Below are positions 1 to 15,354 of a DNA stretch of 64,000 bases, piece after piece. This stretch comes from an uncultured Bacteroidia bacterium (lineage in GTDB: Bacteria > Bacteroidota > Bacteroidia > JANWVE01): the NCBI GenBank assembly GCA_938028625.1, contig CALIZB010000045.1:192-64191 (forward strand). The letters run 5' to 3'. The number at the start of each line of letters is the position of its first letter. Position 1 is the stretch's first letter. The notes below the pieces were generated by a model, which saw nothing but the letters and a program-made list of their open reading frames with translations, did not search any database and had not been told where the DNA came from. Made by a program: the position numbers and the translations under genes.

Positions 1-1
1 T

Positions 2-334
2 CAAGAAGGATATAGCGGGACTAACTTTATAGGATGCCCAGATAGTGGACAAAACTGCTTTTGGCCTCCTGTTGAAGTTTGTGGTAACTGTACTTCACAT
101 ATTCCTGTACTAGAAGAAGTGTTTAATACAGTACAAAATAGTAGTAGTGCAGACATTGTAGAGATATTCACTCTATACCGTGATGTCCCTGTTGAATACT
201 ACCATGACGAGTATGTGGACGGGGTCATCAGTGGAACTTATAGTGCAGGTTACTCACTACTTGACAATATTCATTATTTAAGATTTAAGCAAAACAATCA
301 AACTATTGCTGTATATCCACTTGTAATGCCATAA
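2..334 (+). CDS. Hypothetical Cys-rich protein, C-terminal fragment (gene begins upstream of window). Stop overlaps the ATG of the next gene.
   Basis: Open frame from base 2 with no stop until 332-334. ORF-track piece is 119..334. Stop/start overlap (taATGa) suggests an operon with 334..1512. Confidence 0.3.
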   Translation, partial: QEGYSGTNFIGCPDSGQNCFWPPVEVCGNCTSHIPVLEEVFNTVQNSSSADIVEIFTLYRDVPVEYYHDEYVDGVISGTYSAGYSLLDNIHYLRFKQNNQTIAVYPLVMP

Positions 335-1512
335 TGAAAAGAATTATCAACTATATGCTCGTAGTTATTTGTACCCTGTTCGTTATACTAACAGGGTGCA
401 AAACTACTAAAAAGCCTCCTTTTGAAAAAAAAAGAAGTGTTTCTATTACATTGCCTTATGCACCTGAGTCAAGATACTTGTTTGCACAAAATGATACTGT
501 ATATTTTTGTTCTTACAATTATAATACCTACAAACAAGTAGATATTTATGATACGTTTTATGGAGAGCGGATAAACCAGATAAGTTTAAATCATCTGTTT
601 TTACCTTATGGGGTAAGTTTTATTAAAGTAAAAAACACCGACAGTATACTTATGCTTGCAAATGATACTAACATACTGTATTTAATCAATAAACAAGGTA
701 AAATTTTACAAAAAATTGATATAGACAGTCTGATAAAAAAACACATATGCTTTACGTATCCTGTCCGAGTATGGGCACTATCATCTGATAAAATCTTGTA
801 CAAAAATGATATTATACTGCACGTAGCCAAAGATAAACCTATCAAAGAAAGCAATAGTGTATACCAATCCCAGGTTCAACATAATCAAAATCATATTTCA
901 CTACCCGGCTTTGTTTATATCTCTAACTTTCTCAATGTTAGTTCAAGTGTTGTATGTGACTCTTTACCTGTTATGAGCAAATATATGAAACAAAATGAGT
1001 ATTTTCCTATGATAATAAATTACTTTATGCATAGAGATACCTTATATTTTTATACGGGGTTTCATGATAAAGTAGTAAGATACAATGCAAAAAGTTTAGA
1101 ATACATAGACGAATTAAAGATTCACTCTGAATATACGAGATTAAAGTATCCTGTACCTGTAATTACTGAAGAGAATATTGATAAAGTTTTTCAGAATACA
1201 GGACACCTAATTAGTCGTTTAGGTTTCATTGTACAGATAGGATTTTATCCTAAAAAACAGCATTTTTACGTGTATGTTTCTCATAGTCATCGTGAATATC
1301 AGGAACAAAAAGAATACACACTACCTGTAAACATTGATGAAAGAAAAAGTTCTATAATTGTATATGATAAAAATTGGAAGAAAATATCAGAATATATGTT
1401 ACCTGATACAGAAAAAGATGTTTATTTTTTGGAAGACGGAAATTTTGTTACCTATACAAAATCCAAAAATCCGCGTAATATTACCCTCAATTTTTACCAA
1501 TGGACAGAATAA
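334..1512 (+). CDS. Hypothetical lipoprotein (signal peptide + lipobox LTGC). Possibly a beta-propeller-like Bacteroidota lipoprotein family.
   Basis: 392-aa ORF. N-terminus MKRIINYMLVVICTLFVILTGC is a textbook lipoprotein signal. No catalytic motif recognised. Confidence 0.5.
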   Translation: MKRIINYMLVVICTLFVILTGCKTTKKPPFEKKRSVSITLPYAPESRYLFAQNDTVYFCSYNYNTYKQVDIYDTFYGERINQISLNHLFLPYGVSFIKVKNTDSILMLANDTNILYLINKQGKILQKIDIDSLIKKHICFTYPVRVWALSSDKILYKNDIILHVAKDKPIKESNSVYQSQVQHNQNHISLPGFVYISNFLNVSSSVVCDSLPVMSKYMKQNEYFPMIINYFMHRDTLYFYTGFHDKVVRYNAKSLEYIDELKIHSEYTRLKYPVPVITEENIDKVFQNTGHLISRLGFIVQIGFYPKKQHFYVYVSHSHREYQEQKEYTLPVNIDERKSSIIVYDKNWKKISEYMLPDTEKDVYFLEDGNFVTYTKSKNPRNITLNFYQWTE

Positions 1513-1515
1513 ATT

Positions 1516-1968
1516 ATGAAAAAATGGTGTTTTTTAGCTGTTTTAACTTTGTTTTATCTTGTCTCCTGTGTACAAAAACAAGGTAAAAAAGACTTAAAAA
1601 CGTACTTCAAGCAAGAATTTAACACTGAACTCCCCGCACACGTACATACACTTATTGTGTTAGATGAAGTAGGTTGTAAAGGTTGTAATGTCAGCTTATC
1701 TAATTGGATACAAAAAAAAGCTCTCAACCATGAAAAAATATGGGTTTTAGTTACGGCTGCAGGTGCGCACCTAGATATTTCTCCGTATCTTAATGTAAGA
1801 TATAAAAATGTATTCATAGAGCAGAATATTGGAGCATTCCGAGAGTTACAATTGTGTGGTTCTTCGGGGATTATTCTGTTAGAACAAGGTAAAATACAAA
1901 AAACAGAGTGTCTTACTGCACAACAATTAGAAACACAATTCCAATTATTGGAAGAGAGAATAAAATAA
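1516..1968 (+). CDS. Small lipoprotein with CxxC (GCKGC) motif, possibly thioredoxin-like.
   Basis: 150-aa ORF 4 nt after the previous gene. N-terminus MKKWCFLAVLTLFYLVSC is a lipobox. Single CKGC dithiol motif. Confidence 0.45.
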   Translation: MKKWCFLAVLTLFYLVSCVQKQGKKDLKTYFKQEFNTELPAHVHTLIVLDEVGCKGCNVSLSNWIQKKALNHEKIWVLVTAAGAHLDISPYLNVRYKNVFIEQNIGAFRELQLCGSSGIILLEQGKIQKTECLTAQQLETQFQLLEERIK

Positions 1969-1994
1969 GATTTTATGAGTAAACTTTATTACTT

Positions 1995-2690
1995 TTGTGT
2001 ATGTTTATTGTTATTATCGCTTTGTTGCCCGTAGTGTTAATTAACACTTTTGTTTATGTAAAAGATAAAAAAGATAAAGAACCTATAAAAAACCTTGCTA
2101 TTTCTTTTATTTTAGGAGGGTTAAGTATCTTTTTTGTGGGCATACAACTCATTCTCCATGAGGCAAAAATCATAGGTACATGGGATAATTCTAAAAATGT
2201 AACAGATATTTTTTTACATGCGTTTATAGAAGTAGCCTTAGTAGAGGAGTTAGGTAAATACGTCATGTTGCGCGGGTATGCGTATAGAAGAGAAGCGTTT
2301 AATGAACCTTTTGATGGTATTGTGTATTCGGTTATGGTATCTATGGGATTTGCGGGCTTTGAAAACATTATGTATTCTTTACAAGGGTTAAGTACGGCTA
2401 TTTTAAGGGCTTTTACGGCTGTTCCTGCGCATGCTACTTTTGCCGTAGCTATGGGCTATTATGTGGGGTTAGCCAAATTTAACCCTGAAAAAAGCAGATT
2501 ATATCAATTTATAGGAGTGAGTTTAGCGGTTATTTTTCATGGTTTTTATGATTTCTTTTTGATGTCGCAAGAGCAAATAGGTATGTTTCTGGGAGCATTT
2601 GTTACACTCATTGTGGGCATAGTATTGAGCTTAAAAGCCATAAAACGCCATAAAGCCTTAAAAGAACAACATTTTGCTCAAAACACATAA
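1995..2690 (+). CDS. PrsW-family intramembrane protease-like membrane protein.
   Basis: 231 aa, multi-TM. Carries EELGKY (EExxK), FAGFEN and HATFAVAMG/FHGFYD motifs resembling PrsW/CPBP-type glutamic proteases. Confidence 0.5.
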   Translation: MCMFIVIIALLPVVLINTFVYVKDKKDKEPIKNLAISFILGGLSIFFVGIQLILHEAKIIGTWDNSKNVTDIFLHAFIEVALVEELGKYVMLRGYAYRREAFNEPFDGIVYSVMVSMGFAGFENIMYSLQGLSTAILRAFTAVPAHATFAVAMGYYVGLAKFNPEKSRLYQFIGVSLAVIFHGFYDFFLMSQEQIGMFLGAFVTLIVGIVLSLKAIKRHKALKEQHFAQNT

Positions 2691-2698
2691 AAAATTCA

Positions 2699-5399
2699 TC
2701 AATAGCCCATAAAATAACTTATCTCTATTTGTACATATCGGGACATAAGCCGTTGATTTTGTATGGTATAGTTAAAATCTGTGAAGTTTATTTGTCTGAA
2801 TTGCTGATTGTTGAGTAGGTTATTAACTTTTACTCCCAAAGAAAAATGGTTTTTTTGATATTCGGCAAAAACATTGAGAAAATACGGCATATTGAGCTTT
2901 TGTCCGCGTATCATAAGATATTCAGAGGATATACCTGCACGAAATTTTAAGCTCAATGTATAAGATAAATCTAAAAATACATGTGTAGTCTGATTATATT
3001 GACGGTTAGTATTACTAGTTGCTATGTTATTAGCTACGGAATAAGTATGATTTTGTTGTACTTGAGCATGATAATTGAATACCTTAAATCCTGAACGCAG
3101 ACTTACAGAATAAAAGTGCGAATAGGTTATATTTTGCCTTTCCACGTTATTAACATAGTTAAAATATCGGAACTGATGAAGAGAATAAGTGCCGCGTAAA
3201 GCCGAAGTAATTTGTTTAAAGTACTGTGACACATTCGTGTTTATCATAAGCATTGTATTAGATTTATCTTTACTTACAAAAGCCATTTGATTTTGATTAG
3301 CTACAGTACTTATAAGATTTTCATACAATATGGGACGCTGCATAAGGTTGTACATAAGAATAGTATTCCATTTGAATTTACTTTGATTAGTGTTAAAAAA
3401 GTTGATAAAAGTAAAACTGTGTGAAGGTGAGATGTTAAACTGTCCTAATCCGAATGTGCCACCCTGAAAGTTTTGCAAAATATATCCGTCAAATACACTT
3501 TGAAAAGGACTTATATCCAATTTTCGTTCATAGTTAAGTGAAGTCATAAAAGGGCGCTTGTTGTATTGAACACTTATTTTTGGCAAAAAATAAGGCATTT
3601 GTAAAGTTTTTTGGTTATAGGTAAAATTCAAATATCCAGCTTCCGTAGTAAGATTAAGGCTATAATTTTCATGATTATATTTATGTTCTATGTATGCATA
3701 GTAACGTTGTGTAGTAGGTACACCAAGCCGATTAAGTGTATCAAAAAAAGTGCTGTAATCTGTAAAAAAAGCGGTTTTTATACGTTGTTTTTCATGTTCT
3801 GCACCGATAGTAGCGGTAAAATAGTATTTTTTGTGGTTAGTATTGTAAATAGCATTGAGTTTTGCATTTTGATGGGGCTGTTCAATGGTTTGTTGTATAT
3901 GTGCGTATCCTGTATCTTGTAATATAGGAACAAACTGATTACGATATAAATTATAGTGTTGTGTAAAATCAAATTCAGTTTGATAAAGTGTAATTAAGCG
4001 AATAGCTTGCTTTTTAGTAATTTGGTAGGTATATTCTGTATTTTCAAATAAAGTTTTTCTGAATGTGCGCAGGTGCTGTGTATAAGGTCTGCCATTAAAA
4101 AGTATCTCTTCATGATGGAATTTTTCAGTATAACTCAATCCATTTATCCATCTAAAAAGATGACGAGATTTAAGTTTGGAGAGGTAAGTACTCACATCTG
4201 TATTTAGAGGTTTGTAAGTAAGGCTGTGGCGTTGTGTATTTTGAATGGTATCAGAATTGGGCAAAATAAAACCTTGTGTATATTCCTGAAACATTTGATT
4301 TTTACCTGTGATTAAAGATGCAGTGCTTTTGAACTCCCATTTTTTGGGCAGTTTGAAAAGATAGGCTTGTTCTAGGTTGTAGCTTTGGTTAAAATTAGAG
4401 ATAGGTGTATTAAAATTGGATATAGTGGAGTAGTTTGGAAAATTGAGTATAGCTGTAGTTGGCGACATATCATAACTACTATTGGGATTAAGTAGGCTTA
4501 AATAATTTCCTGAAAAGAAGAAATCTGCGGTTTTTTCTAAATTCAGGTTATCGGTATCGCCTATGTTATTTGTTTTGGCAGAGAGAATAGTTTTGAATTT
4601 TTTACGAAGGAGCATTTCTTCTATTTTTACCTTGTAACGTGGTGCGTAATGTGCATCTATACCTGCGGATATGCTATATTCTCCTGTCCACACATTACGG
4701 GCTTTGGCATTGAGTTTTAAGTTAAGAACTTTTTCATCGGTGCTTTGAATTTTTGTAAGCAAAGGATTATCAGAGTATTTGTCTATTACTTGAATGGTAT
4801 CTACGGATTGTGCAGGGAGCGTTTTAGTAATTTTTTGATAATTATTTCCTTTAAGGTCATCACCGTCAATGAGTACGCGCGAGATTATTTTGCCATTATG
4901 TTTTATTTTACCTTTTTCATCAATTTCCACTCCCGGAATTTTTTTGAGAACATCTTCTATTTTTTTATCACCAGGTTGAATAAGGTCTTTTACTTTGTAG
5001 TCTAAGGTGTCTTTTATGGCAGGAGGCTTATTTTCTATGATAACTGTTTCTTTTAATTTGACTGTTGTAGGCACTAAAATAATATCAAAAAATTGAGTAG
5101 TTTTAGTAGTATCTATAATAAAAGAACGTGTTTTATAGCCAAGTAGTGCGATATCCAGGGTTAAATTAGGTTTTTTAGGTACTTCTATTTCAAAATTACC
5201 TTTGCTGTTTGTTTCACTAAATTGTAAGATATAACCTTCGGGGACTTGTTTTATTGTAACAATAGCTCCTGATATACTTTTTTGGTTAGTGCTGTCTTTT
5301 ACAGTTCCTTGAAGAAGAATATTTTGTGCATGAAGCGAGTAGCTAAAAAAAAAATTGTGTTACACAGAGCAGAAAATAAAAAAACAGGTTATTTTTCAT
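2699..5399 (-). pseudogene. TonB-dependent-receptor-like outer-membrane beta-barrel protein with N-terminal CarboxypepD_reg domain. The signal-peptide start (ATG 5397-5399) is out of frame with the body because of an A10/T10 homopolymer.
   Basis: Track ORF 2699..5074 starts at GTG. The same frame stays open upstream to a TAA at 5360-5362 and encodes ...FFFSYSLHAQNILLQGTVKDS (signal-peptidase site plus CarboxypepD_reg). Plug-like motif NLKLNAKARNVW follows. C-terminal aromatic residue (…FMGY). A perfect signal peptide MKNNLFFYFLLCVTQFFF sits in the -1 frame and terminates right after the T10 run. Confidence 0.6.
5345..5354. repeat. Homopolymer A10 (T10 on the coding strand) at the signal-peptide/mature-protein junction of the OMP gene. 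Candidate slipped-strand phase-variation switch.
   Basis: Ten consecutive A at 5345-5354. 9 or 12 T would fuse signal peptide and body in frame. Confidence 0.5.
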
Positions 5400-5576
5400 A
5401 GCTGATTAATTTTGATGAGTTCAAATGTATAGTATGTTAATTTATTTAATTTTAATACGTTGAAAATGACAAAACCAAAAAAAGATTATTATGTTTTATT
5501 ATACAATCGGGGCATTATGTATCTCTTTTTGCGCAAAAATATAATAGATGTATTAAGTTTGCAATACCTAAATTTT

Positions 5577-6353
5577 TCATTCAAATTCTATTTCCCATTC
5601 AGGGACAATGCTTTTATATTGAAAATGATATTTTACACGTTCTTCTTCGGGCGAGCGTTCTTCTTCGGCATTCATTTGTGCAGTAATTTCCTTAATTTTT
5701 TTATCTATGCGGGTTTTATAGTGTTCTTTATATTCTTGCCATGAAGTTTTTACATCATTTTTATGATAGGGGATAGAGGAATAGTTTTGTAAAATTTTTT
5801 GTATATTATCTTGTTTTACAGGTATTTCTATTTCATTACATTGTAGTACGATAACACTGTCCTGTGTATAAGCAGTAAGGATTAAACCAGGTAGTCCATG
5901 TAATTTCCATGGTCCAAATTTGATGGGGATTTGTGGCGTAAACCATGCTTGCCAAGTACGTCCCCTAAATGTTGTTATGGCTTTTTGACAGGTATAATTT
6001 TGTATTTTTTTCGTTTCAGGACAAATTTGCCATTTTATTTTTGGAATACCATGAGGTTCATACGTGTACACTCTATACGCAGGAATAACTGTGCGGATAC
6101 ACATCTGGTTTTTTGCAGAATACGTGTAAATTACATTTCCTATATTTTCTCTTTTATCTCTTTCTGCATCATAAACAAAAATAGCGGTTTGTTCGTTGTA
6201 GTACAGGAATGTAGGAATATTTTTTATTTCCTGTTGTTGTGCAGAGAGAGTGTCATTTTTGAATGAAAGACTGTAATAAATTATTCCATTGTTTATCTGA
6301 GACTTGCAATGAAAAGATACTATTACCAATAAGCTGATATGCCATATTTTCAT
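5577..6353 (-). CDS. GLPGLI-family protein (Bacteroidota-specific paralogous family of unknown function) with signal peptide.
   Basis: 258 aa. Literal GLPGLIL motif within ...FRGRTWQAWFTPQIPIKFGPWKLHGLPGLILTAY. N-terminal signal MKIWHISLLVIVSFHC. Paralog of 6791..7798. Confidence 0.7.
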   Translation of the reverse strand: MKIWHISLLVIVSFHCKSQINNGIIYYSLSFKNDTLSAQQQEIKNIPTFLYYNEQTAIFVYDAERDKRENIGNVIYTYSAKNQMCIRTVIPAYRVYTYEPHGIPKIKWQICPETKKIQNYTCQKAITTFRGRTWQAWFTPQIPIKFGPWKLHGLPGLILTAYTQDSVIVLQCNEIEIPVKQDNIQKILQNYSSIPYHKNDVKTSWQEYKEHYKTRIDKKIKEITAQMNAEEERSPEEERVKYHFQYKSIVPEWEIEFE

Positions 6354-6428
6354 AATACCATTAAATAAACGATATTTAAATTTAAGTCTGATTTGTTGTT
6401 TAATAAAACCAGGCTTTTACAAAAAAGT

Positions 6429-6671
6429 TTACTTTGTTAGAATATCACATAATTTTCCTGCATTTGCACCTGCTTTTTTACATGCTTTTTCATAATTACT
6501 TCCTTCACCGTAACCAGTTATAGTACCGCCTGCACATTGTATAGTAACGGTACAAGATACTATTTGTACATCTTTTTTGGGTTCTACCTTTTCAGGTTTA
6601 TTCTCTGCCCAACTCATTACGGGGAGCAACATTAACGCCGCTACAACCCAAATTTTTCTTACCTTTTTCAT
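6429..6671 (-). CDS. Small secreted cysteine-rich peptide A (80 aa; Sec signal + ~54-aa mature peptide with 4 Cys and a GYGEG motif).
   Basis: N-terminus MKKVRKIWVVAALMLLPVMSWA|ENKPE. Mature part has C-x6-C … GYGEG … AC … C. Sits directly upstream of a GLPGLI gene. Paralog at 7824..8099. Confidence 0.6.
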   Translation of the reverse strand: MKKVRKIWVVAALMLLPVMSWAENKPEKVEPKKDVQIVSCTVTIQCAGGTITGYGEGSNYEKACKKAGANAGKLCDILTK

Positions 6672-6786
6672 AGCTTATTTATGAGATTAAATGCACCGCA
6701 GAAATCTAAAAAAAAAAATACAAGTCAAGTTTTATATAAAAAATATTTCTATTTTTCTTGTATCTCTTTGAAAAAGAGTTTTTTAT
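6589..6786. repeat. Copy A of a ~200 bp direct repeat (~96% identical to 8017..8218). Covers the first ~27 codons (signal peptide), 5'UTR and promoter of the small-peptide gene.
   Basis: Base-by-base comparison with 8017..8218 shows ~6 substitutions plus a 2-nt homopolymer length difference. Homology ends abruptly after ENKPE codons. Confidence 0.8.
6708..6718. promoter_or_regulatory. Poly(A)11 / poly(T)11 tract in the putative promoter spacer of peptide gene A (~37 nt upstream of its ATG).
   Basis: In minus-strand orientation: …AACTTGACTTGTA-T11-AGATTTCTGCGG…ATG. Flanked by TTG (-33-like) and TAgaTTTC (Bacteroidota -7 TAnnTTTG-like) elements. Copy B has T13. Confidence 0.4.
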
Positions 6787-6790
6787 AGAT

Positions 6791-7798
6791 TTAGTATTCA
6801 AATTCTAATTCTATCTGAGGTTCTTCACATACAGCTCCCATTTTTATCATTCTAAAACTATTACCTCTACTTTGATATTCTGCATTTAATTGTTTTGTGT
6901 ACTCATCAATTTTCTTTTGAGTTAAAGTTCTATAATAGTCTTTGTAATCCTCCCAAGTTGCATTCAACTTACCGTCCCGATAAGGTTTTATTTCTAGTCC
7001 AATATCTTCCAGAATAAGTTTATTGGTAGCAGGAATTTCTATCTCTTCAAACAAGAAATTAATTTTTTTATCTTTATCATATACTTCTAAAATTAAGCCG
7101 GGTAAGCCATAGAACTTCCAAGGACCCATTTTAATAGGAATATCAGGACAAAACCATGCTTCCCAATGCCTTCCCCTGAAATAACAGGTAGCTTTGTAAC
7201 AAGTAAAAGAACCTAATCTTCGGGTTTCTGTGGTAATACTCCAATTAAATTTAGGAAATTTATCGCCATTCTCTTCTATGATAGCTAATCCTAATAAAAA
7301 AACACCATCTCTGTGCACCATTTCTTTGGTTAGTATGTTTTTATATATTACTTCGCCGGTGTTATCAAATTTTGTTTTTGTATTAGGTATTTTTTTACTG
7401 CCATACATGTACACAGAAGCATAATCATTAAAAAGCAAAAAAGACGGATTAACCGTAGAACTTTTTCGATCGAGCATAATAATACTATAAACACTATCAG
7501 GTATGTTTTGATTAACTTCAAATATTTGTTTGTAAGTAACTAAACCTGTTGTGTTTTGTGTATAAACTAAATAATTGAAGCAAGATAACAAGATAATTAT
7601 AGTGCTTAGTTTCATGGCGAGATAATTACATAATATATTGATGAATAAATTTGAAAATGCTGGTATTTTAATTGTATGAATAGCTATTTTAAACTTACTT
7701 AGCATACCATTTTTATGCTTAAGGGTATCTATCACACTTTGAAATACCAGTTCAAGGTTATTAGAAAATTTGTTATTTAATACACATTTATGACTCAA
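6791..7798 (-). CDS. GLPGLI-family protein, second paralog. The track ORF starts at TTG 7798. Probable true start is the signal-peptide Met at ~7614 (MKLSTIIILLSCFNYLVYTQN).
   Basis: …FRGRHWEAWFCPDIPIKMGPWKFYGLPGLILEVY… aligns with the 5577..6353 product. The internal Met begins a clear signal peptide. Confidence 0.65.
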   Translation of the reverse strand: MSHKCVLNNKFSNNLELVFQSVIDTLKHKNGMLSKFKIAIHTIKIPAFSNLFINILCNYLAMKLSTIIILLSCFNYLVYTQNTTGLVTYKQIFEVNQNIPDSVYSIIMLDRKSSTVNPSFLLFNDYASVYMYGSKKIPNTKTKFDNTGEVIYKNILTKEMVHRDGVFLLGLAIIEENGDKFPKFNWSITTETRRLGSFTCYKATCYFRGRHWEAWFCPDIPIKMGPWKFYGLPGLILEVYDKDKKINFLFEEIEIPATNKLILEDIGLEIKPYRDGKLNATWEDYKDYYRTLTQKKIDEYTKQLNAEYQSRGNSFRMIKMGAVCEEPQIELEFEY

Positions 7799-7823
7799 TC
7801 ATCAAATAGTATTTGAGAAATGA

Positions 7824-8099
7824 TTATAGTAGGGCAAATACCGTACACATAGCTAATGCTGACACATATGCTTCTGCACAAGCACTTGCCTGGTCCACAC
7901 CCTCACCATACCCATATACCCAACCGTCTGTCCACTCGCTACATTTAGTAGCTAATACACAAGGGATCTGTTGTACTTGTTTTGTGTTTTCTATTTTTAC
8001 TTCATTTCTTGGAGTATTTTCAGGCTTATTCTCTGCCCAACTCATTACGGGGAGCAACACTAACGCCGCTACAACCCAAATTTTTCTTACCTTTTTCAT
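7824..8099 (-). CDS. Small secreted cysteine-rich peptide B (91 aa), paralog of peptide A. Near-identical signal peptide, divergent mature region.
   Basis: N-terminus MKKVRKIWVVAALVLLPVMSWAENKPE. Mature part again has C-x5/6-C … GYGEG … AC … C. Located upstream of the second GLPGLI gene. Confidence 0.6.
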   Translation of the reverse strand: MKKVRKIWVVAALVLLPVMSWAENKPENTPRNEVKIENTKQVQQIPCVLATKCSEWTDGWVYGYGEGVDQASACAEAYVSALAMCTVFALL

Positions 8100-8218
8100 A
8101 GCTTGTTTATGAGATTAAATGCACCGCAAAAATCTAAAAAAAAAAAAATACAAGTCAAGTTTTATATAAAAAATATTTCTATTTTTCTTGTATGTGTTTG
8201 AAAAAGAGTTATTTTTAT
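8017..8218. repeat. Copy B of the ~200 bp promoter + leader direct repeat (see 6589..6786).
   Basis: Direct comparison. Contains an A13 tract (8136-8148) instead of A11. Confidence 0.8.
8136..8148. promoter_or_regulatory. Poly(A)13 / poly(T)13 tract in the promoter spacer of peptide gene B.
   Basis: Same context as 6708-6718 but two nucleotides longer. Confidence 0.4.
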
Positions 8219-8389
8219 ATATTGGTGTTAGAATTACAACCAAAATACTTTTTTTGTATTGTTAAATAAGCAAACCTATATTGAGTCTAACTAATAATAA
8301 TTCAAGTTATGCATTGAGAAGTTAAATGTAAAGTGGATATAAGAAAAATTTGTTTGTTTAGAGATAATTCTTGTAAATTGCATGCGGAT

Positions 8390-9859
8390 ATGGAGAATCT
8401 TACATTAGACCTTTTACAAAGTCTACCCTTAATTTTACTGTTAGTGATGGCACTTTTTTTAATGATTGCCGAAGCTATTGACCGTAAGAGCGTAGTAGTA
8501 CCTTATATTGGCATAGTGGCTTTATTAGTTTCTGCGGTATTAGAATTTCCTTTTGATGATAAAAATGGAGATATGTATCGTAGTGTGGCAATATACAATG
8601 GTATGCTGAAAGTGAGAGGAATAGCTTCTTTGTTTCATGTAATTTTATGTTTAACAGGTGCATTTGCTTTATCTTTTGTTGTACCTTATTTGCGAAAACT
8701 TAAAGAATTTAAAGATGACATAACAGGTGAAATAACTGTACTAACCATTTTTGCAGTAATAGGCATGATACTATTAGCTAATGCAAATGATTTGATTATA
8801 ACTTTCATTGGATTAGAAACCATGTCTGTTTGTTTGTATATTATGGCAGGTTCATTAAAGACGCGTAAAGAGAGCAATGAAGCAGGAATTAAATACTTTT
8901 TACTTGGGGCATTTGCATCAGCATTTTTGTTGTATGGCATAGCGCTTATTTATGGAGCATCAGGCAGTACAAATTACAACAAAATGAACATGGCATTGTT
9001 ACAGAACTCTCCTTTGTTTTTTGCAGGTACAGGTCTGATACTGGTAGGTTTTCTCTTTAAGATATCCGCTTTTCCGTTTCATTTCTGGGCACCTGATGTA
9101 TATCAAGGGGCGCCCACACCTATGGTGGGCTTTATGGCAACGGCATCAAAAAGTGCATCTTTCTGGGGACTGATGCTGTTTATTGTAGCGATGAGTACCG
9201 TACCTAAACTGAATACACTTTTGCAAATTATTGCCGTACTTACTATGATTTGGGGTAATTTTATGGCTATCCGTCAGACAAATTTAAAGCGAGTATTAGC
9301 ATATTCTAGCGTAGCTCATGCAGGATATGTATTGCTTGCTATGGCTTCACACTCTAATATGGGCTTTCAGGCGGTAGTGTTTTACATGATAGCTTATACC
9401 CTTATGAACCTTGCTACTTTTGGAGTTATTTCTTTGATAGAAGGAGAAAAATTTAGTACTAATGCAAAAGAATTACAAGGATTGTATTATCAAAAACCTG
9501 CATACGCCATAATTCTCTCCATGTGTATGCTGGCATTATCTGGTATTCCGCCATTTATAGGATTTATAGGCAAATATCAAGTATTTGCAGCAGCTATAAA
9601 AGCAGATATGGTTGTTCCTGCCATTATTGGTATCATAACTTCTGTGGTATCCGCTTTTTATTATTTGAGTGTTATTCGTAGGATTTGTTTTATCAAACCT
9701 GACGAAAAATATCTACATACACCTTTTGTCGCAGACGGATTAAGCTATACTGCTTTGGGCATACTTGTTTTTGCCATAGTGGTTTTGGGCTGTTATCCAA
9801 GTCCTGTTTTGAATCTTGTTAATAAATTGTATTTGTACTCTGTTGCTTTTATTGGTTAA
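8390..9859 (+). CDS. NuoN-like proton-translocating membrane subunit (complex I subunit N / NADH dehydrogenase subunit 2 family, PF00361). Orphan: no other nuo genes nearby in this window.
   Basis: ~14 TM segments. Diagnostic stretch KISAFPFHFWAPDVYQGAPTPMVGFMATASKSASF plus LYGIALIYGASGSTNY, typical of NuoN/ND2. Probable start is MENLTLDLLQ (8390), not the upstream ATG at 8333. Confidence 0.65.
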   Translation: MENLTLDLLQSLPLILLLVMALFLMIAEAIDRKSVVVPYIGIVALLVSAVLEFPFDDKNGDMYRSVAIYNGMLKVRGIASLFHVILCLTGAFALSFVVPYLRKLKEFKDDITGEITVLTIFAVIGMILLANANDLIITFIGLETMSVCLYIMAGSLKTRKESNEAGIKYFLLGAFASAFLLYGIALIYGASGSTNYNKMNMALLQNSPLFFAGTGLILVGFLFKISAFPFHFWAPDVYQGAPTPMVGFMATASKSASFWGLMLFIVAMSTVPKLNTLLQIIAVLTMIWGNFMAIRQTNLKRVLAYSSVAHAGYVLLAMASHSNMGFQAVVFYMIAYTLMNLATFGVISLIEGEKFSTNAKELQGLYYQKPAYAIILSMCMLALSGIPPFIGFIGKYQVFAAAIKADMVVPAIIGIITSVVSAFYYLSVIRRICFIKPDEKYLHTPFVADGLSYTALGILVFAIVVLGCYPSPVLNLVNKLYLYSVAFIG

Positions 9860-9860
9860 C

Positions 9861-10796
9861 ATGGCAGAATATCTTGTTTTTGCAAGCGAAGGATATGTAT
9901 ATCTAGAAGAGAAACTTGTTTCTCTGCTTCCTGGTGCGGAACATGGCACGGCAGAAAAAAAGGTATTTCCTGACGGAGAAATCTATCATCGTATTGTGTC
10001 TGATGTACAGGATAAAAACATTATTTTTGTTGTAGATACGACTACTGAACAGGCGGTACTCAACGGATATGATGTAGCCTGTGCTATGGTTAAGTACGGG
10101 GCAGAAAGTCTGACATTAGTTATTCCGTATTTTGCATATAGCACTATGGAACGCGCAATAAAACAAGGTGAAGTAGTAAAAGCTAAAACAAGAGCAAGAT
10201 TATTTTCTAATATTCCCCAAGCACACAGAGGTAACCATATCATCTTGATAGATTTGCATGCCGAAGGCATACCGCATTACTTTGAAAATGACGTAATATG
10301 CACACATTTGTACGCAAAACCTGTCGTTATACAGGCAATAAGGGAATTTGGCGGAGAGGATTTTATATTAGCTTCCACAGATGCGGGACGTGCCAAATGG
10401 GTAGAGTCATTAGCTTCGGAGGTGCAAGTACCAAGTGCTTTTGTCTATAAAACAAGGTTAAGCGGTTCTGAAACCAAAATTACAGGTATCAACGCATCAG
10501 TACAAGGTAAAACGGTAGTTATCTATGATGATATGATACGTACAGGAGGTTCTCTCATAAACGCCGCCACAGCCTATCTTGAACACGGAGCAAAAGAAAT
10601 ATATGCGGTAGCTACACATTTAGTTTTACCTGAGGGCAGTTTAGAAAAAATACAGCAGAGCAATACCATTAAAAAAATAGCAGGAACAAATACACACCCC
10701 AACAGCCAAAAATATATTGCATCTGACTTTATTAAAGTGCATGACATCAGCAGTATTGTGGCTACTGCTATACACAAAAAAATAAAAATTGCATAA
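9861..10796 (+). CDS. Ribose-phosphate pyrophosphokinase (PRPP synthetase) family protein, divergent. Starts 1 nt after the NuoN-like stop.
   Basis: VFPDGEI (cf. FSDGE), VIPYFAYSTMER (cf. VIPYFGYARQDR), DLHAEGIPHYF (cf. DLHAEQIQGFF), DDMIRTGGS (cf. DDMIDTGGT), YKTR (cf. DKRR). Confidence 0.65.
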   Translation: MAEYLVFASEGYVYLEEKLVSLLPGAEHGTAEKKVFPDGEIYHRIVSDVQDKNIIFVVDTTTEQAVLNGYDVACAMVKYGAESLTLVIPYFAYSTMERAIKQGEVVKAKTRARLFSNIPQAHRGNHIILIDLHAEGIPHYFENDVICTHLYAKPVVIQAIREFGGEDFILASTDAGRAKWVESLASEVQVPSAFVYKTRLSGSETKITGINASVQGKTVVIYDDMIRTGGSLINAATAYLEHGAKEIYAVATHLVLPEGSLEKIQQSNTIKKIAGTNTHPNSQKYIASDFIKVHDISSIVATAIHKKIKIA

Positions 10797-10805
10797 CGTT
10801 GCCGT

Positions 10806-11372
10806 ATGAAAGTATGGAAAAAACGCCTTATAAGATGGACCTCTGTTTTGTTTTTTTTTGCAGGGATTTTTCTTTTTATGGATTACAGGCGTATCGGAAA
10901 GGTTATCAATGAATACAACGGAGTTCCTATTTATTACAATGGATTAGTATTTCAATCGCCTAAAAAGCCGCATAAAAGTGAAAAAGGGGTCTATTATGGC
11001 ATAAAATGGGAAAGCACAGAGTTTGTTCGCAGATATTATTATGAAAAGCTAAAGTATTATATTCCTGCAAAATATCATTATGCTATTAGTTGGGTAGGAT
11101 ATGGAGTTAAAGCAGGCGAGAGAAACCCTATTGGATTGCGTCAGTACTATAACGGCGGTACAGTTAAACCTCAAAAAGACGATATAATAGTGTTTAAAAA
11201 CAAAAAATACGGACATTGCGCCCTCATAGCCGAAGTGTACGACAATGACTTGATTGTACTGTATCAGCAGAATGTATGGGGCTGGTCTAAAGAAAAATGT
11301 AAGCTCAAAAAAGAAAATAACCGCTATTATATAGGAAGTTACCTTACCCCGATAGCCTGGATGAGAAAATAA
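10806..11372 (+). CDS. Hypothetical N-terminally membrane-anchored protein. Weak CHAP-like (GHCALIAEV) resemblance.
   Basis: 188 aa with one N-terminal TM (TSVLFFFAGIFLFM). C-terminal …IIVFKNKKYGHCALIAEV resembles the His motif of CHAP amidases, but the Cys motif is not clear. Confidence 0.3.
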   Translation: MKVWKKRLIRWTSVLFFFAGIFLFMDYRRIGKVINEYNGVPIYYNGLVFQSPKKPHKSEKGVYYGIKWESTEFVRRYYYEKLKYYIPAKYHYAISWVGYGVKAGERNPIGLRQYYNGGTVKPQKDDIIVFKNKKYGHCALIAEVYDNDLIVLYQQNVWGWSKEKCKLKKENNRYYIGSYLTPIAWMRK

Positions 11373-11457
11373 GCATAAGGCGGAAAAATCATGTAAAGAT
11401 ATAGTTGCTGTATTTTTATCATGTATAACATCATACCAGCCATTCATTGCAATTTTT

Positions 11458-12045
11458 TTGATATACTTTCCAACCTTTTTTATATTTATTTACTCTTTAT
11501 GGCAAAGAACTGTGAATATCTCCGAAGAGACACTCATTCAGGGCTGTGTACAGCAGGACAGGCGTTATCAGAAATTGTTGTATGAAAGATACTGCGAAGC
11601 TATGTTTACTGTAGCTGTGCGTTTGTGTAATTCTTACGAAGATGCCGAAGATGCGTTACAGGAGGCTTTTGTAGAGATATTCAGGAATATTCAACAGTTT
11701 CGTAAAGAAAGTACACTCGGTGCCTGGATAAAAAAAATTGTGGTACGCTCTGCTATCAGAAAAACAAGAAAAGATACAAAATACACTGAATACGAAATAA
11801 TACATGATATTACTGATGACCTTGATACATACATTACTCAGGAAACTGACATGGAGTATCTTGAAAAATGTATTTTATCTTTACCCGAAAAATGCAGACA
11901 GATATTTGTTCTATCAGAAATTGAAGGATATGCACACGAGGAAATTGCCCAGATGCTCAATATTTCCATAGGTACGTCTAAATCGCAACTACATTATGCT
12001 AAACAACTTTTAAAGCAAAAACTACAAATTATACTTAAAAACTGA
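11458..12045 (+). CDS. ECF-type RNA polymerase sigma-70 factor.
   Basis: Region 2 (LYERYCEAMFTVAVRLCNSYEDAEDALQEAFVEIF) and region 4 HTH (YAHEEIAQMLNISIGTSKSQL). True start may be the internal GTG (~11509). Confidence 0.75.
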   Translation: MIYFPTFFIFIYSLWQRTVNISEETLIQGCVQQDRRYQKLLYERYCEAMFTVAVRLCNSYEDAEDALQEAFVEIFRNIQQFRKESTLGAWIKKIVVRSAIRKTRKDTKYTEYEIIHDITDDLDTYITQETDMEYLEKCILSLPEKCRQIFVLSEIEGYAHEEIAQMLNISIGTSKSQLHYAKQLLKQKLQIILKN

Positions 12046-12047
12046 AT

Positions 12048-12560
12048 ATGAAAACAAATTTATACCAAAAATTACCTGTATATAAACCCTCTGACAAGGT
12101 ATGGCAGAATATTGAAAAAGAACTTGATGCTCTGCAAAAAGTACAATCCAACGTAAAATATGTTTATTTGTGGCCTCTTGTAGCAGGTTTTATATTGGTT
12201 TTTTTTGCCACTTTATTGTTTGTAAATAGACAGAGTGAAGTAGCCAAAAATCATCAGAGTTTGCAGATTACGTATTCTGAGGAAATACTAGACTCTGTAT
12301 TAGTACAAAAAGTTCAGACTGACACCGTTTCTGATACAGAAATAGAAAATATTTGTGAGATGCAACCTGTAAAATGTGAAGACGAATATGCAAAATCTTT
12401 ACTCAAACAGATACAGGACTTATCTCAAGCATATTTAGAATTAGACCAAAGTACCGCAGAACAGTCCATTCCTGATGTAACTGTACAAAAGCAAAAAGCC
12501 CATTTAGAAAAAGAAAAACACAAGCGAATCAAAAAACTGAAACGTTATCTAAATGAATAA
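12048..12560 (+). CDS. Putative anti-sigma factor (single-pass membrane protein) cognate to the upstream ECF sigma.
   Basis: Starts 2 nt after the sigma gene. One TM (YLWPLVAGFILVFFATLLFV). Inferred from position only. Confidence 0.4.
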   Translation: MKTNLYQKLPVYKPSDKVWQNIEKELDALQKVQSNVKYVYLWPLVAGFILVFFATLLFVNRQSEVAKNHQSLQITYSEEILDSVLVQKVQTDTVSDTEIENICEMQPVKCEDEYAKSLLKQIQDLSQAYLELDQSTAEQSIPDVTVQKQKAHLEKEKHKRIKKLKRYLNE

Positions 12561-12585
12561 AAATGCTTATTTTTGTGGTTAAGCC

Positions 12586-13341
12586 ATGTTAAGTATAGAG
12601 AATGCGAGCAAAATTTTTGTTATAGATGAACATACACGCATTTATGGATTGAATGAAGTTTCTTTATCCTTACAAAAAGAGGACTTTCTGATACTTATTG
12701 GCAGTAATGGCAGTGGAAAAAGCACTTTGCTTAATGCTATCAGCGGGTATATTGCTTTGAATTCAGGTAAAATTCTGCTCAATGGCAAAGAAATTACACA
12801 CCTATCTGCCCGTGAACGAAGCAAAAGTATTGTCAGAATAGCACAAAATCCTGCAACTAATACGGTTTCAGAACTTTCTGTGGTTCAGAATTTCAGATTG
12901 GCTTATTTGAGAAAACGAAGTACTGGACTGAAAAAAGCTATAGATAGGTCTTTTTACAAAGAGGTTCAGGAAAAAGTAAGTCTGCTCAATATGGGATTAG
13001 AAAACAAACTTAATCAGGAAATGAGCAAACTTTCAGGAGGACAAAGGCAGGCTTTGTCTGTACTCATGTATACTTGGCATAAACCTGAACTGTTGTTGTT
13101 AGATGAACCCACAGCCGCATTAGATGTAAAATCTGCTGATACTGTAATGAATATCGTGCAATATATCACAAAAGAGCATAAAATTCCTTGTATCCTGATT
13201 ACGCATAATCTTAAAGATATGATACAGTACGGAAATCGCTTAATACAACTGAACCAAGGTAAAATTATCAGGAATATTACTGAACAAGAAAAACAAAACT
13301 TATCTACCTCAGAAATTCTTGCGTGGCTGTCGGAGATGTAA
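12586..13341 (+). CDS. ABC transporter ATP-binding protein (no adjacent permease gene).
   Basis: Walker A GSNGSGKST, signature LSGGQRQALSV, Walker B LLLLDEPTAALD. Confidence 0.75.
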   Translation: MLSIENASKIFVIDEHTRIYGLNEVSLSLQKEDFLILIGSNGSGKSTLLNAISGYIALNSGKILLNGKEITHLSARERSKSIVRIAQNPATNTVSELSVVQNFRLAYLRKRSTGLKKAIDRSFYKEVQEKVSLLNMGLENKLNQEMSKLSGGQRQALSVLMYTWHKPELLLLDEPTAALDVKSADTVMNIVQYITKEHKIPCILITHNLKDMIQYGNRLIQLNQGKIIRNITEQEKQNLSTSEILAWLSEM

Positions 13342-13384
13342 ACCATCAAACTCTTTAAGCAAGCATAAAAAAATAGATTTTTTA

Positions 13385-14488
13385 TTACTTTCCTAATTGT
13401 TTTTTCAAGTCTTTATAGGCGTTTTGTGCTTCTAAATTATTAGGATTGAATTTTACAGCGAGCTTATAATCTTCCAACGCTCTTTCTTTATTGTCAAGAG
13501 CTTCGTTGCATGTACCACGCATGTATAAAGCATCAGAAAAAGTATTGTCCAATTGAATGGCACGGGTAAAATCTTCGCGAGCAAAGGCATACTGTTTTTT
13601 CTCCCATTGTATCAAACCTCTGTTGTAGTACGCATTTTTATAGGAAGGATTGATAAACAGACATTTGTTATATGCAAAAATCGCTTTATCCAATTCTTGG
13701 TTTTCCTGCAACAAAACTCCCATATTATAGTGTGCATTAGCGTTATTTTCGTTGAATTTAATTGATTTTTGATAATAATTTAGGGCTTGTTGGTATAAGT
13801 TAGAAGCCTCTTTTTTTTGTGTTTTAGCTAATTTCCATTCTTCATGTGCCATCTGACCAAGTTCTAAGTGTGCATTAGAAAAAGTGCTATCATATTCAAG
13901 TGTTTTTTCAAAATATTTACGTGCTTCTGTGTTATTATTTTTATTGCGATACACTAATCCTAGTCCAAAGTAGGCAGGGGGATAGTTAGGAGATTTTTCC
14001 AGAGCTATCTGAAATAATTTTTGAGCGTTATCTACTTTACCTTGATAAAAAAGAATAGTAGCCGCTGCGGCGTAAATAGCAGGATTATTTGTACCTAATT
14101 TAATAGCTTCTTGATACGCATTAAGGGCTTCGTCATCTTTAGCTAATACATATTCGTATATTCCCAACTGGTAATGATAATCAGGGTTTTTAGGTTCTAA
14201 TTCAATAGCACGCTTAACATCTAAAACAGCCGTATTAACTTCACCTTTCTGAAAGTTAAGCACAGAACGGCGATAATATAAATCAGGTTTAGGTGCAAAT
14301 TTTTCTAAACTATCTGTAATATCTTTTATACCTTTTTCTATAATTTTCAGTTGTTTTTCAGTATCAGATAGTTGTATGTTTGTTTTTTGTTGTAGGCTAT
14401 CTTTTTTAGTTGTTTTTTTATCTGAACTACAATCGGTGAGCAAAACAGCAGATATGAGCAGTAAAAAAAGGAAAATACTTTTTTGCAT
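13385..14488 (-). CDS. TPR-repeat lipoprotein.
   Basis: Lipobox LLTDC. Multiple 34-aa TPR-like repeats (…AYYNRGL…, …AHYNMGV…). Confidence 0.7.
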   Translation of the reverse strand: MQKSIFLFLLLISAVLLTDCSSDKKTTKKDSLQQKTNIQLSDTEKQLKIIEKGIKDITDSLEKFAPKPDLYYRRSVLNFQKGEVNTAVLDVKRAIELEPKNPDYHYQLGIYEYVLAKDDEALNAYQEAIKLGTNNPAIYAAAATILFYQGKVDNAQKLFQIALEKSPNYPPAYFGLGLVYRNKNNNTEARKYFEKTLEYDSTFSNAHLELGQMAHEEWKLAKTQKKEASNLYQQALNYYQKSIKFNENNANAHYNMGVLLQENQELDKAIFAYNKCLFINPSYKNAYYNRGLIQWEKKQYAFAREDFTRAIQLDNTFSDALYMRGTCNEALDNKERALEDYKLAVKFNPNNLEAQNAYKDLKKQLGK

Positions 14489-14496
14489 AGGTTAAT

Positions 14497-15354
14497 TTAT
14501 TTTTGTTCAGGGTATATGTAAAACCCTTTACCTGTTTTTCTTCCCCAGAATTTAGCTTCTACTTTTTTCTGTTGAATAAGATTAGGTCTAAAACGAGCAT
14601 CTTGGTAAAAAGCATTAAATAAAGAAACCGTTACAGAAAAATTGACGTCTACCCCAATTAAGTCCATCAATTTGAATGCGCCCATTTTAAATCCTGTGGC
14701 TTCTAAAAGTTCGTCTATTTGTTCCATCTCTGCAGCCTGTTCAGAAAGAATTTTTAGACTTTCTCCGTAAAAATGGCGTGCCACTCGATTGACAATAAAT
14801 CCAGGGTAATCTTTAACTAAAATAGCCGTTTTTTGCATATTTTCGGCTACTTTTTTAACTATGTCTACAAGTTTTGTATCTGAGGCTTCACCTGCTATTA
14901 CTTCTACTAATTTCATCACAGGAGCGGGATTAAAAAAGTGCATACCTATTACACGTTCAGGATATTTGCATGCAGACGCAATTTGTGTAATAGGAATAGA
15001 GGAGGTATTACTGCAAAAAATAGTATTAGCAGGCATACGCTCTTCTAATGCAGAGAATAAATCCTGTTTAGCTTTAAGATTTTCTACAATAGCCTCAATA
15101 ACTAAATCTGCATTGATTTCAGAAAATTCTGATGTATATGTGATGCGATGTAAAGAAGCGTTTTTTTGCTCTGTGGTGATTTTTTGTTTCTGTGCAAGGT
15201 TTTCCAGCGCAATTTCTATATTCAGTTTGGCTTTTTTGAGTGCTACGTCATTGATATCAAACAGAATAGTACGGTAACCGTGCATGGCGGCTACTTGGGC
15301 AATACCCGTACCCATAGTTCCAGAACCAATAACAGCAATAGTTTTTATATCCAT
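14497..15354 (-). CDS. 3-hydroxyacyl-CoA / 3-hydroxybutyryl-CoA dehydrogenase (NAD-binding).
   Basis: N-terminal Rossmann IAVIGSGTMGTGIAQV plus Hbd/PaaH-like body. Confidence 0.75.
   Translation of the reverse strand: MDIKTIAVIGSGTMGTGIAQVAAMHGYRTILFDINDVALKKAKLNIEIALENLAQKQKITTEQKNASLHRITYTSEFSEINADLVIEAIVENLKAKQDLFSALEERMPANTIFCSNTSSIPITQIASACKYPERVIGMHFFNPAPVMKLVEVIAGEASDTKLVDIVKKVAENMQKTAILVKDYPGFIVNRVARHFYGESLKILSEQAAEMEQIDELLEATGFKMGAFKLMDLIGVDVNFSVTVSLFNAFYQDARFRPNLIQQKKVEAKFWGRKTGKGFYIYPEQK

Follow-up and report, generated by a model that had tools for sequence, protein, structure and literature searches.

The question raised by this locus is whether a homopolymer that separates a signal peptide from the rest of its outer-membrane protein (OMP) is a reversible switch, a site of leaky expression or a recent lesion. 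The locus lies in a 64,000-nucleotide stretch of DNA from an uncultured Bacteroidia bacterium (assembly GCA_938028625.1, contig CALIZB010000045.1, positions 192 to 64,191 of the forward strand), which as a whole is called the window here and supplies the coordinates. The original prediction held that a run of ten T (T10) splits the gene of a TonB-receptor-like OMP, and that this is the geometry of a contingency locus switched ON and OFF by slippage. On balance, we consider the T10 allele to be probably a recent loss-of-function allele, namely a young pseudogene, of a TonB-dependent-transporter-like OMP gene in a decaying peptide/GLPGLI/receptor module. The features at the split are as follows.

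5343..5399, minus strand: leader open reading frame (ORF) of 18 codons, the orphaned signal peptide of the OMP, translated as MKNNLFFYFLLCVTQFFF; M1, K2, N3, F7, Y8, F9, L11, T14 and F16 are common to the ortholog described below.
5345..5354, minus strand: T10 tract (A10 on the plus strand), by direct reading; T10 is identical in the strain assemblies L001, L002 and L004, and the ancestral state was probably T9, coding for Phe-Phe-Phe in the h-region of the signal peptide.
5324..5329, minus strand: predicted signal peptidase I site LHA|Q, with Ala24 at 5329-5327 and Gln25 at 5326-5324 in the numbering of the T9-repaired protein.
2699..5359, minus strand: main OMP frame (+1), by translation without a canonical start before GTG 5074-5072; P0001 is the ORF of 791 amino acids (aa) called from this GTG.

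As read directly, the homopolymer consists of exactly ten T at 5354-5345 of the minus strand. The leader ORF starts at ATG 5399-5397 and stops at TAG 5345-5343; the codons at the tract are CAA TTT TTT TTT TAG, and T10 abuts the stop directly. The main frame, which is +1 relative to the leader, is open from 5359, just past the TAA at 5362-5360, to the stop at 2699-2701, over about 2.65 kb. Its N-terminal reading is HNFFFSYSLHAQNILLQGTVKD, including the stretch FFFSYSLHAQNILLQGTVKD, and its earliest ATG, GTG or TTG is the GTG that opens the 791-aa entry of the ORF list. When one T was deleted in silico (T9), a single ORF of 899 aa was obtained, and T12 would yield 900 aa. The geometry that had been predicted, with a signal peptide running from ATG 5399-5397 into T10 and a stop, a main frame lacking a start codon until an internal GTG, and both pieces joined by T9 or T12, was thus reproduced base for base. 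The run as such is within chance for a window of 34.7% G+C, in which 7 overlapping 10-mer matches were counted; dinucleotide shuffles had 5.5 on average, and 39 out of 100 had 7 or more. The significance of T10 is its position. Translation from the internal GTG 5074 was also considered and rejected, since the product would be devoid of the signal peptide and the N-terminal 108 residues and could not reach the outer membrane.

To relate the two pieces to one another, they were compared with an ortholog of 65-67% amino-acid identity on a Logan contig (L003), the N-terminus of which is uninterrupted and reads MKNTFLFYFTLYTAFLTALKTEAQDILLKGSVKD. The leader ORF and the main frame, each in its own frame, are colinear with this N-terminus, and the length fits T9 with no length change. 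Therefore, they are two pieces of one ancestral gene, in which the tract was probably T9 (Phe-Phe-Phe). There is no T run at the equivalent site of the ortholog, where it reads GCATTTTTGACTGCG. The frame is also disrupted relative to the homologs, family members being 884-898 aa long with an N-terminal signal and an AQ site. The predicted cleavage site in the window fits the Q-rule for Bacteroidota signal peptidase sites (PMC5837995); the Gln after it is conserved in at least 90% of the 90 family members, and the A|Q pattern is also found in other secreted ORFs of the window.

For a young pseudogene, the course of events would be as follows. Replication slippage would have lengthened T9, the three signal-peptide Phe codons, to T10. 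Ribosomes starting at ATG 5399 would then halt at the UAG after 18 residues, the other 881 codons would lie in the +1 frame with neither a start codon nor an export signal, and no OMP would be expected except from rare slipped molecules. Since both polymerases, for DNA and for RNA, as well as ribosomes are prone to slip on T10, a residual or revertible level of expression would be physically expected.

To see how the tract behaves among strains, four haplotypes, found by exact-protein look-up, were compared: the window, L001 (Logan, ERR9287890), L002 (Logan, ERR9287621) and L004 (a second contig of a metagenome-assembled genome (MAG), ERZ6864144). Relative to the window, there are 3 substitutions in L001, 7 in L002 and 36 in L004, and these are distinct haplotypes from at least three samples. 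T10 was present in 4/4, with no other tract length among them; all strains of the species that were sampled have T10 as their consensus. A search for the T9/T12 ON allele with the repaired protein as the query found no 899/900-aa form and no N-terminal ON fragment in about 5.8 billion protein clusters; the 90% protein cluster of the OMP held only two 791-aa forms and one 115-aa remnant. A DNA-pattern scan of metagenome contigs with the OMP tract flanks and a variable gap gave no match, a scan of genome contigs with the OMP alignment found no relative, and an exact-protein look-up with GLPGLI copy 1 found no further contig spanning a tract.

Upstream of the OMP gene, on the same strand, there are two tandem units, each composed of a gene for a small secreted Cys-containing peptide followed by a GLPGLI gene.

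7824..8099, minus strand: 91-aa secreted Cys-containing peptide gene, from the sequence.
6791..7705, minus strand: GLPGLI family protein copy 1 (TIGR01200, E = 2.2e-41); gene callers start at 7705, a signal-peptide-like start is at 7615.
6429..6671, minus strand: 80-aa secreted Cys-containing peptide gene, a paralog of the 91-aa gene, from the sequence.
5577..6353, minus strand: GLPGLI family protein copy 2, 258 aa, immediately upstream of the OMP gene (TIGR01200, E = 2.4e-33; Pfam Porph_ging and PNGase_F-II_N).
5422..5429, minus strand: TACATTTG, which fits the Bacteroidota -7 consensus TAnnTTTG exactly, by pattern only, and ends 22 nt before the ATG of the OMP gene.

The OMP gene thus adjoins a peptide/GLPGLI module as predicted, with both TIGR01200 matches and the peptide genes in place. 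The order small peptide, GLPGLI and receptor also occurs in Polaribacter sp. WD7 (L091 4154-8667), and GLPGLI with the receptor, without the peptide gene, in Ornithobacterium (L092 5274-8685). By this gene order, the receptor is the last gene of a conserved small-peptide/GLPGLI/receptor module, the upstream part of which occupies window 5577-8099.

In related lineages, this module is being lost. In L005, a sister lineage (SRR27723350, about 90% nucleotide identity), the stretch corresponding to window 3304-6336 is deleted, i.e., GLPGLI and roughly the first 700 OMP codons. This lineage is also without 156 bp of the peptide gene, including the signal peptide, and what remains of its OMP gene has small deletions and is stopped early by a TAA. 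All that is left of the module, at L005 7840-8700, is the promoter, 27 codons of the peptide gene and the final ~600 bp of the OMP gene. A second lineage, called species B here, comprises two MAGs named 'Bacteroidia bacterium' and two Logan runs (L003, L093, L094 and L095; GCA_025056095.1, GCA_033578305.1, SRR15826901 and SRR25904939), and its OMP has 65% amino-acid identity with that of the window. An A4-to-A5 frameshift near codon 269 of the OMP gene was found in 4/4 assemblies of species B, in addition to strain-specific indels (+A in L093, +2 nt in L095), and the upstream GLPGLI gene is reduced to its last codons. In the NCBI annotation of species B, the 655-aa C-terminal piece of the OMP is listed as a hypothetical protein (MCS7029451.1). 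The module is thus under independent loss in related lineages, with T10 as the first lesion of the module in the lineage of the window. Given three recent inactivations that arose independently within one clade, the module has probably become dispensable.

The Nei-Gojobori ratio of nonsynonymous to synonymous divergence (dN/dS) between the window and species B was about 0.07 (dN 0.22, dS saturated). Therefore, the gene has been strongly constrained for most of its history, and the lesions are recent. Among the four strains, the main frame has eight single-nucleotide polymorphisms (SNPs), five synonymous and three nonsynonymous, and no further lesions.

Several findings weigh against a lost gene. 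All five transitions among the eight main-frame SNPs are synonymous (naive P about 0.004), the 2.65-kb frame is otherwise intact in the four strains, and the upstream peptide and GLPGLI genes and the good -7 box are intact as well. Furthermore, the ENA runs behind the four assemblies have similar numbers, and the strains may all be from one habitat, in which case the OFF consensus could be habitat-specific. A minority of ON cells would be invisible in consensus assemblies. With regard to the SNPs, a stretch of 25 bp holds four of the eight, of which three are synonymous transitions and one is a nonsynonymous transversion, and these four may have been imported together by one recombination event; outside this stretch, two synonymous and two nonsynonymous SNPs are left. 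The SNPs between the window and L004 are very unevenly spread, with 9 in the first 210 bp, 8 in a 392-aa ORF and 1 in the 6.7 kb to the right (window 1-1200 vs 8390-15080). This uneven density suggests recombination tracts, which would limit any selection test.

Given the indel rates of homopolymers, reversion of T10 should be much more frequent than base substitution. A persistent OFF consensus therefore implies that the ON state is not favoured where the strains were sampled. The kind of event is ordinary, being a further instance of known frameshift pseudogenes. The lineage-associated decay of Campylobacter autotransporter genes is reportedly an example of homopolymer-frameshift pseudogenes among surface genes. 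The likeness is that an OMP gene is inactivated close to its 5' end by the gain or loss of one base in a mononucleotide run, with other lesions in relatives; the difference is that here the host is an uncultured, deep-branching member of the Bacteroidota and the poly-T encodes signal-peptide Phe codons. If the gene is a young pseudogene, the main consequence is for annotation: the 791-aa GTG-start ORFs in public databases (P0001 and P0092) would be artefacts that result from the frameshift in an 899-aa gene, and they should carry a flag to that effect. In addition, three related lineages from one uncultured clade of Bacteroidota would have lost the module recently and in parallel, which would bear on the function of GLPGLI modules.

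Instead of being lost, the gene may be expressed at a low and constant level without any change of the DNA, through RNA polymerase slippage (U9/U12) and/or a +1 slip of tRNA-Phe at UUU-UAG, and the leakage may be kept by selection; we consider this explanation possible but doubtful. A/T runs of at least 9 cause transcriptional slippage in bacteria (PMC5009743), and in Citrobacter rodentium tssM1, about 20-25% of the products are brought back into frame at an A11 that immediately precedes a stop (PMC4256274). In the sequence CAA UUU UUU UUU UAG C, the P-site tRNA-Phe could re-pair perfectly in +1 with the stop codon in the A site (a 'shifty stop'). The intact ORF in the four strains and the SNP pattern, which hints at constraint, would also fit a gene that is still used. 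Leaky expression from T10 is thus physically likely and may or may not be put to use. However, the frameshift is limited to one species-level population (at least 99.7% identity) and absent in the ortholog, whereas maintained recoding sites are conserved, and the gene is under loss in related lineages. There is neither a stimulatory RNA structure downstream (fold z = +0.97) nor a GGAGG or Shine-Dalgarno (SD)-like element upstream of the tract, and therefore no sign of a programmed recoding site. The tssM1 A11 (PMC4256274) and the poly(A) frameshifts of Buchnera and Blochmannia, which are rescued by RNA polymerase slippage (cited in PMC5009743), likewise have an A/T run of at least 9-11 directly before an in-frame stop, with the essential remainder in another frame. 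Their sites are conserved or shown to yield product, whereas the present one is confined to one population and known from sequence alone. In the +1 frameshift of prfB (RF2) at CUU UGA C, the P-site tRNA can equally re-pair on UUU in +1 with the stop in the A site; however, an SD-like stimulator lies upstream in prfB, which is also conserved throughout the bacteria, and neither feature was found at the T10 site.

Whether poly-T tracts change at all on the timescale of these strains can be read from two further tracts in the same module. A highly conserved duplicated region of ~130 bp lies upstream of both peptide genes (8100-8235 and 6672-6795, minus strand), and its poly-T sits between ACTTGACTTGTA and AGATTT[T/C]TGCGG, 38 nt before the ATG.

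8136..8148, minus strand: T13 tract in the upstream repeat of the 91-aa peptide gene; T9 in L004 and T8 in L005.
6708..6718, minus strand: T11 tract in the promoter-like upstream repeat of the 80-aa peptide gene; T9 in L004 and L089.

The tract lengths are T13/T11 in the window, T9/T9 in the 99.7%-identical L004, T9 in L089, T8 in L005 and T7 in species B, and the two tracts are the sole indels in 15 kb between the window and L004. The promoter tracts vary between strains, and therefore poly-T changes on this timescale here, yet the OMP tract is unchanged. A sigma-70-like match, TTGACT-16-TAGATT, is given by the T13 copy only. The two tracts are candidates for a promoter-spacer switch or rheostat, as judged from the sequence, and the pair is a more promising lead for repeat-mediated regulation than the OMP T10. 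A pattern scan of metagenome contigs with the promoter repeat gave no match. In L089 1-1071 (ERR9287625), the flank typical of the first (91-aa) unit is joined directly to the 80-aa peptide gene, and this junction reflects either a single-unit strain that arose by recombination between the promoter repeats or an assembler jump across the repeat. All five A/T runs of at least 9 in the 64-kb window (at 425, 5345, 6708, 8136 and 10851) fall in its first 11 kb.

The reversible contingency locus of the original prediction, in which DNA slippage would toggle T10 (OFF) to T9 or T12 (ON) at high frequency, a subpopulation would show the receptor and OFF would be the majority state in the sampled habitats, e.g., if the receptor is a phage or bacteriocin target, is unlikely. 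The tract does lie within the 5' signal-peptide codons of a surface-protein gene with an otherwise intact ORF, at a length that is borderline for A/T, and the two promoter poly-T tracts of the same module, within 3 kb, vary between 99.7%-identical strains (T13/T11 vs T9/T9). In addition, the SNPs give a weak hint of purifying selection. However, the length of the OMP tract is variable in 0/4 haplotypes, no ON allele was found in the public protein data, and the tract is not conserved in the ortholog. The original prediction had also called for a comparison of orthologs for tract length and frame. The tract itself is absent from the nearest ortholog, and the orthologs in two related lineages are inactivated by unrelated, non-repeat lesions, which is the fixed-pseudogene outcome that the prediction had named as speaking against a switch.

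The established switches show what is missing here. In Neisseria meningitidis hpuA/hpuB (and hmbR), a homopolymer also lies in the 5' coding region of a TonB-dependent haemoglobin receptor system and the truncated product is also very short, as in the 23-aa HpuA fragment that results from a frameshift (bioRxiv 10.1101/2022.02.25.481912). However, the Neisseria tract is poly-G, its length varies between and within strains, and its switching has been measured, whereas the present tract is poly-T, invariant in four strains and without a counterpart in the ortholog. In Helicobacter pylori, the genes oipA, sabA and hopZ carry CT repeats in the region coding for the signal peptide, and a poly-T in the sabA promoter serves as a 'rheostat'. 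There, a repeat within the signal-sequence codons parts the start codon from the mature protein, as T10 does in the window, and a promoter poly-T varies between strains, as at the two peptide promoters; however, every known collection of H. pylori strains is polymorphic for these repeats, and the OMP tract shows no such polymorphism. A comparative study of H. influenzae concluded that A/T runs of 9-10 within ORFs do not act as phase-variation tracts (PMC2651432).

A broader proposal is that the OMP T10 and the two promoter tracts (T7 to T13) are three poly-T switches of one module, with the receptor made from T10 by reversible DNA slippage and/or by transcriptional slippage and shifty-stop frameshifting; we regard this as quite unlikely. 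Phase variation in Bacteroidota is known mainly through DNA inversion. If the proposal were true, the module would be a contingency island of the simple-sequence-repeat type in an environmental, deep-branching member of the Bacteroidota, and if mixed tract lengths were real, the OMP locus would, together with the variable promoter tracts, be one of the few candidates in this phylum for phase variation mediated by repeats. Finally, the sequencing or assembly artefact that the original prediction had offered as the alternative, with a true tract of T9 and an intact gene, is very unlikely, because, although errors are common in homopolymers and the window comes from a metagenome assembly, T10 recurs in four SNP-distinct assemblies, including the per-run Logan assemblies of two runs, and the 21 other coding A/T runs of at least 8 in the window (one A9, one T9 and nineteen A8/T8), 93.6% of which is covered by open frames of at least 100 codons, are all in frame.

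To characterize the product that the repaired gene would encode, the protein was compared with profiles and modelled.

5039..5314, minus strand: CarboxypepD_reg-like N-terminal domain, residues 29-120 of the repaired protein (Pfam PF13715 CarbopepD_reg_2, E = 1.1e-10).
2702..5038, minus strand: plug-like region and beta-barrel, a predicted TonB-dependent-transporter-like fold (AlphaFold2 model, Foldseek).

The signal-peptidase site and the CarboxypepD_reg domain of the original prediction were both borne out, by LHA|Q in the repaired protein and by the PF13715 match. Its description as a TonB-receptor-like OMP held in part. The PF07715 plug and PF00593 TonB_dep_Rec profiles gave no Pfam match in the repaired protein even at E up to 5, the only matches being CarbopepD_reg_2/CarboxypepD_reg, and the NCBIfam profiles gave no match to the OMP. 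However, the AlphaFold2 model, built on 90 homologs, had a pLDDT of 86.6 and a pTM of 0.77, and in the Foldseek search against the PDB all 50 of the 50 listed matches were TonB-dependent transporters (Cir, HasR, OprC, FpvA, BtuB), with probability 1.00 and E down to 1.6e-16, at TM scores of only 0.30-0.51. The name is therefore a fair one for the predicted fold, but the sequence profiles do not establish it. A conserved LxEVxI motif (the family consensus; LKETVII in the window protein) is located between the N-terminal domain and the plug-like region and may be a TonB box of the Bacteroidota type. Full-length homologs, at no more than 27% identity and 884-898 aa, occur in Polaribacter, Tenacibaculum, Ornithobacterium and many metagenomes. 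More distant OMP homologs carry PF14905, and three carry PF07715 and PF00593. No compensating paralog of the OMP was found in the window.

Concerning transcription of the module, TAnnTTTG is the -7 promoter consensus of Bacteroidota/Bacteroides. In a scan for sigma-70 promoters and terminators, the promoters were not above the shuffles and no terminators were found, a result that says nothing on co-transcription. Rfam at gathering thresholds gave no match in the window. The literature on GLPGLI is nearly empty.

A protein search with SecDF returned relatives at 96% and 82% identity and then at no more than 49%, and the SecDF scan of genome contigs returned relatives at 41-45% identity only (Cytophagales and others); judged by these sequences, the host is an uncultured, deep-branching member of the Bacteroidota. 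The flanking genes common to the window and L005 are NuoN and PrsW. In the PrsW ORF (window 1965-2690, plus strand), the window has T at 1980 instead of C, which gives TAA against the CAA at codon 6 of the 241-aa call in the other three strains. The ORF of the window starts at TTG 1995, where the NCBIfam PrsW alignment begins, and the difference is probably harmless.

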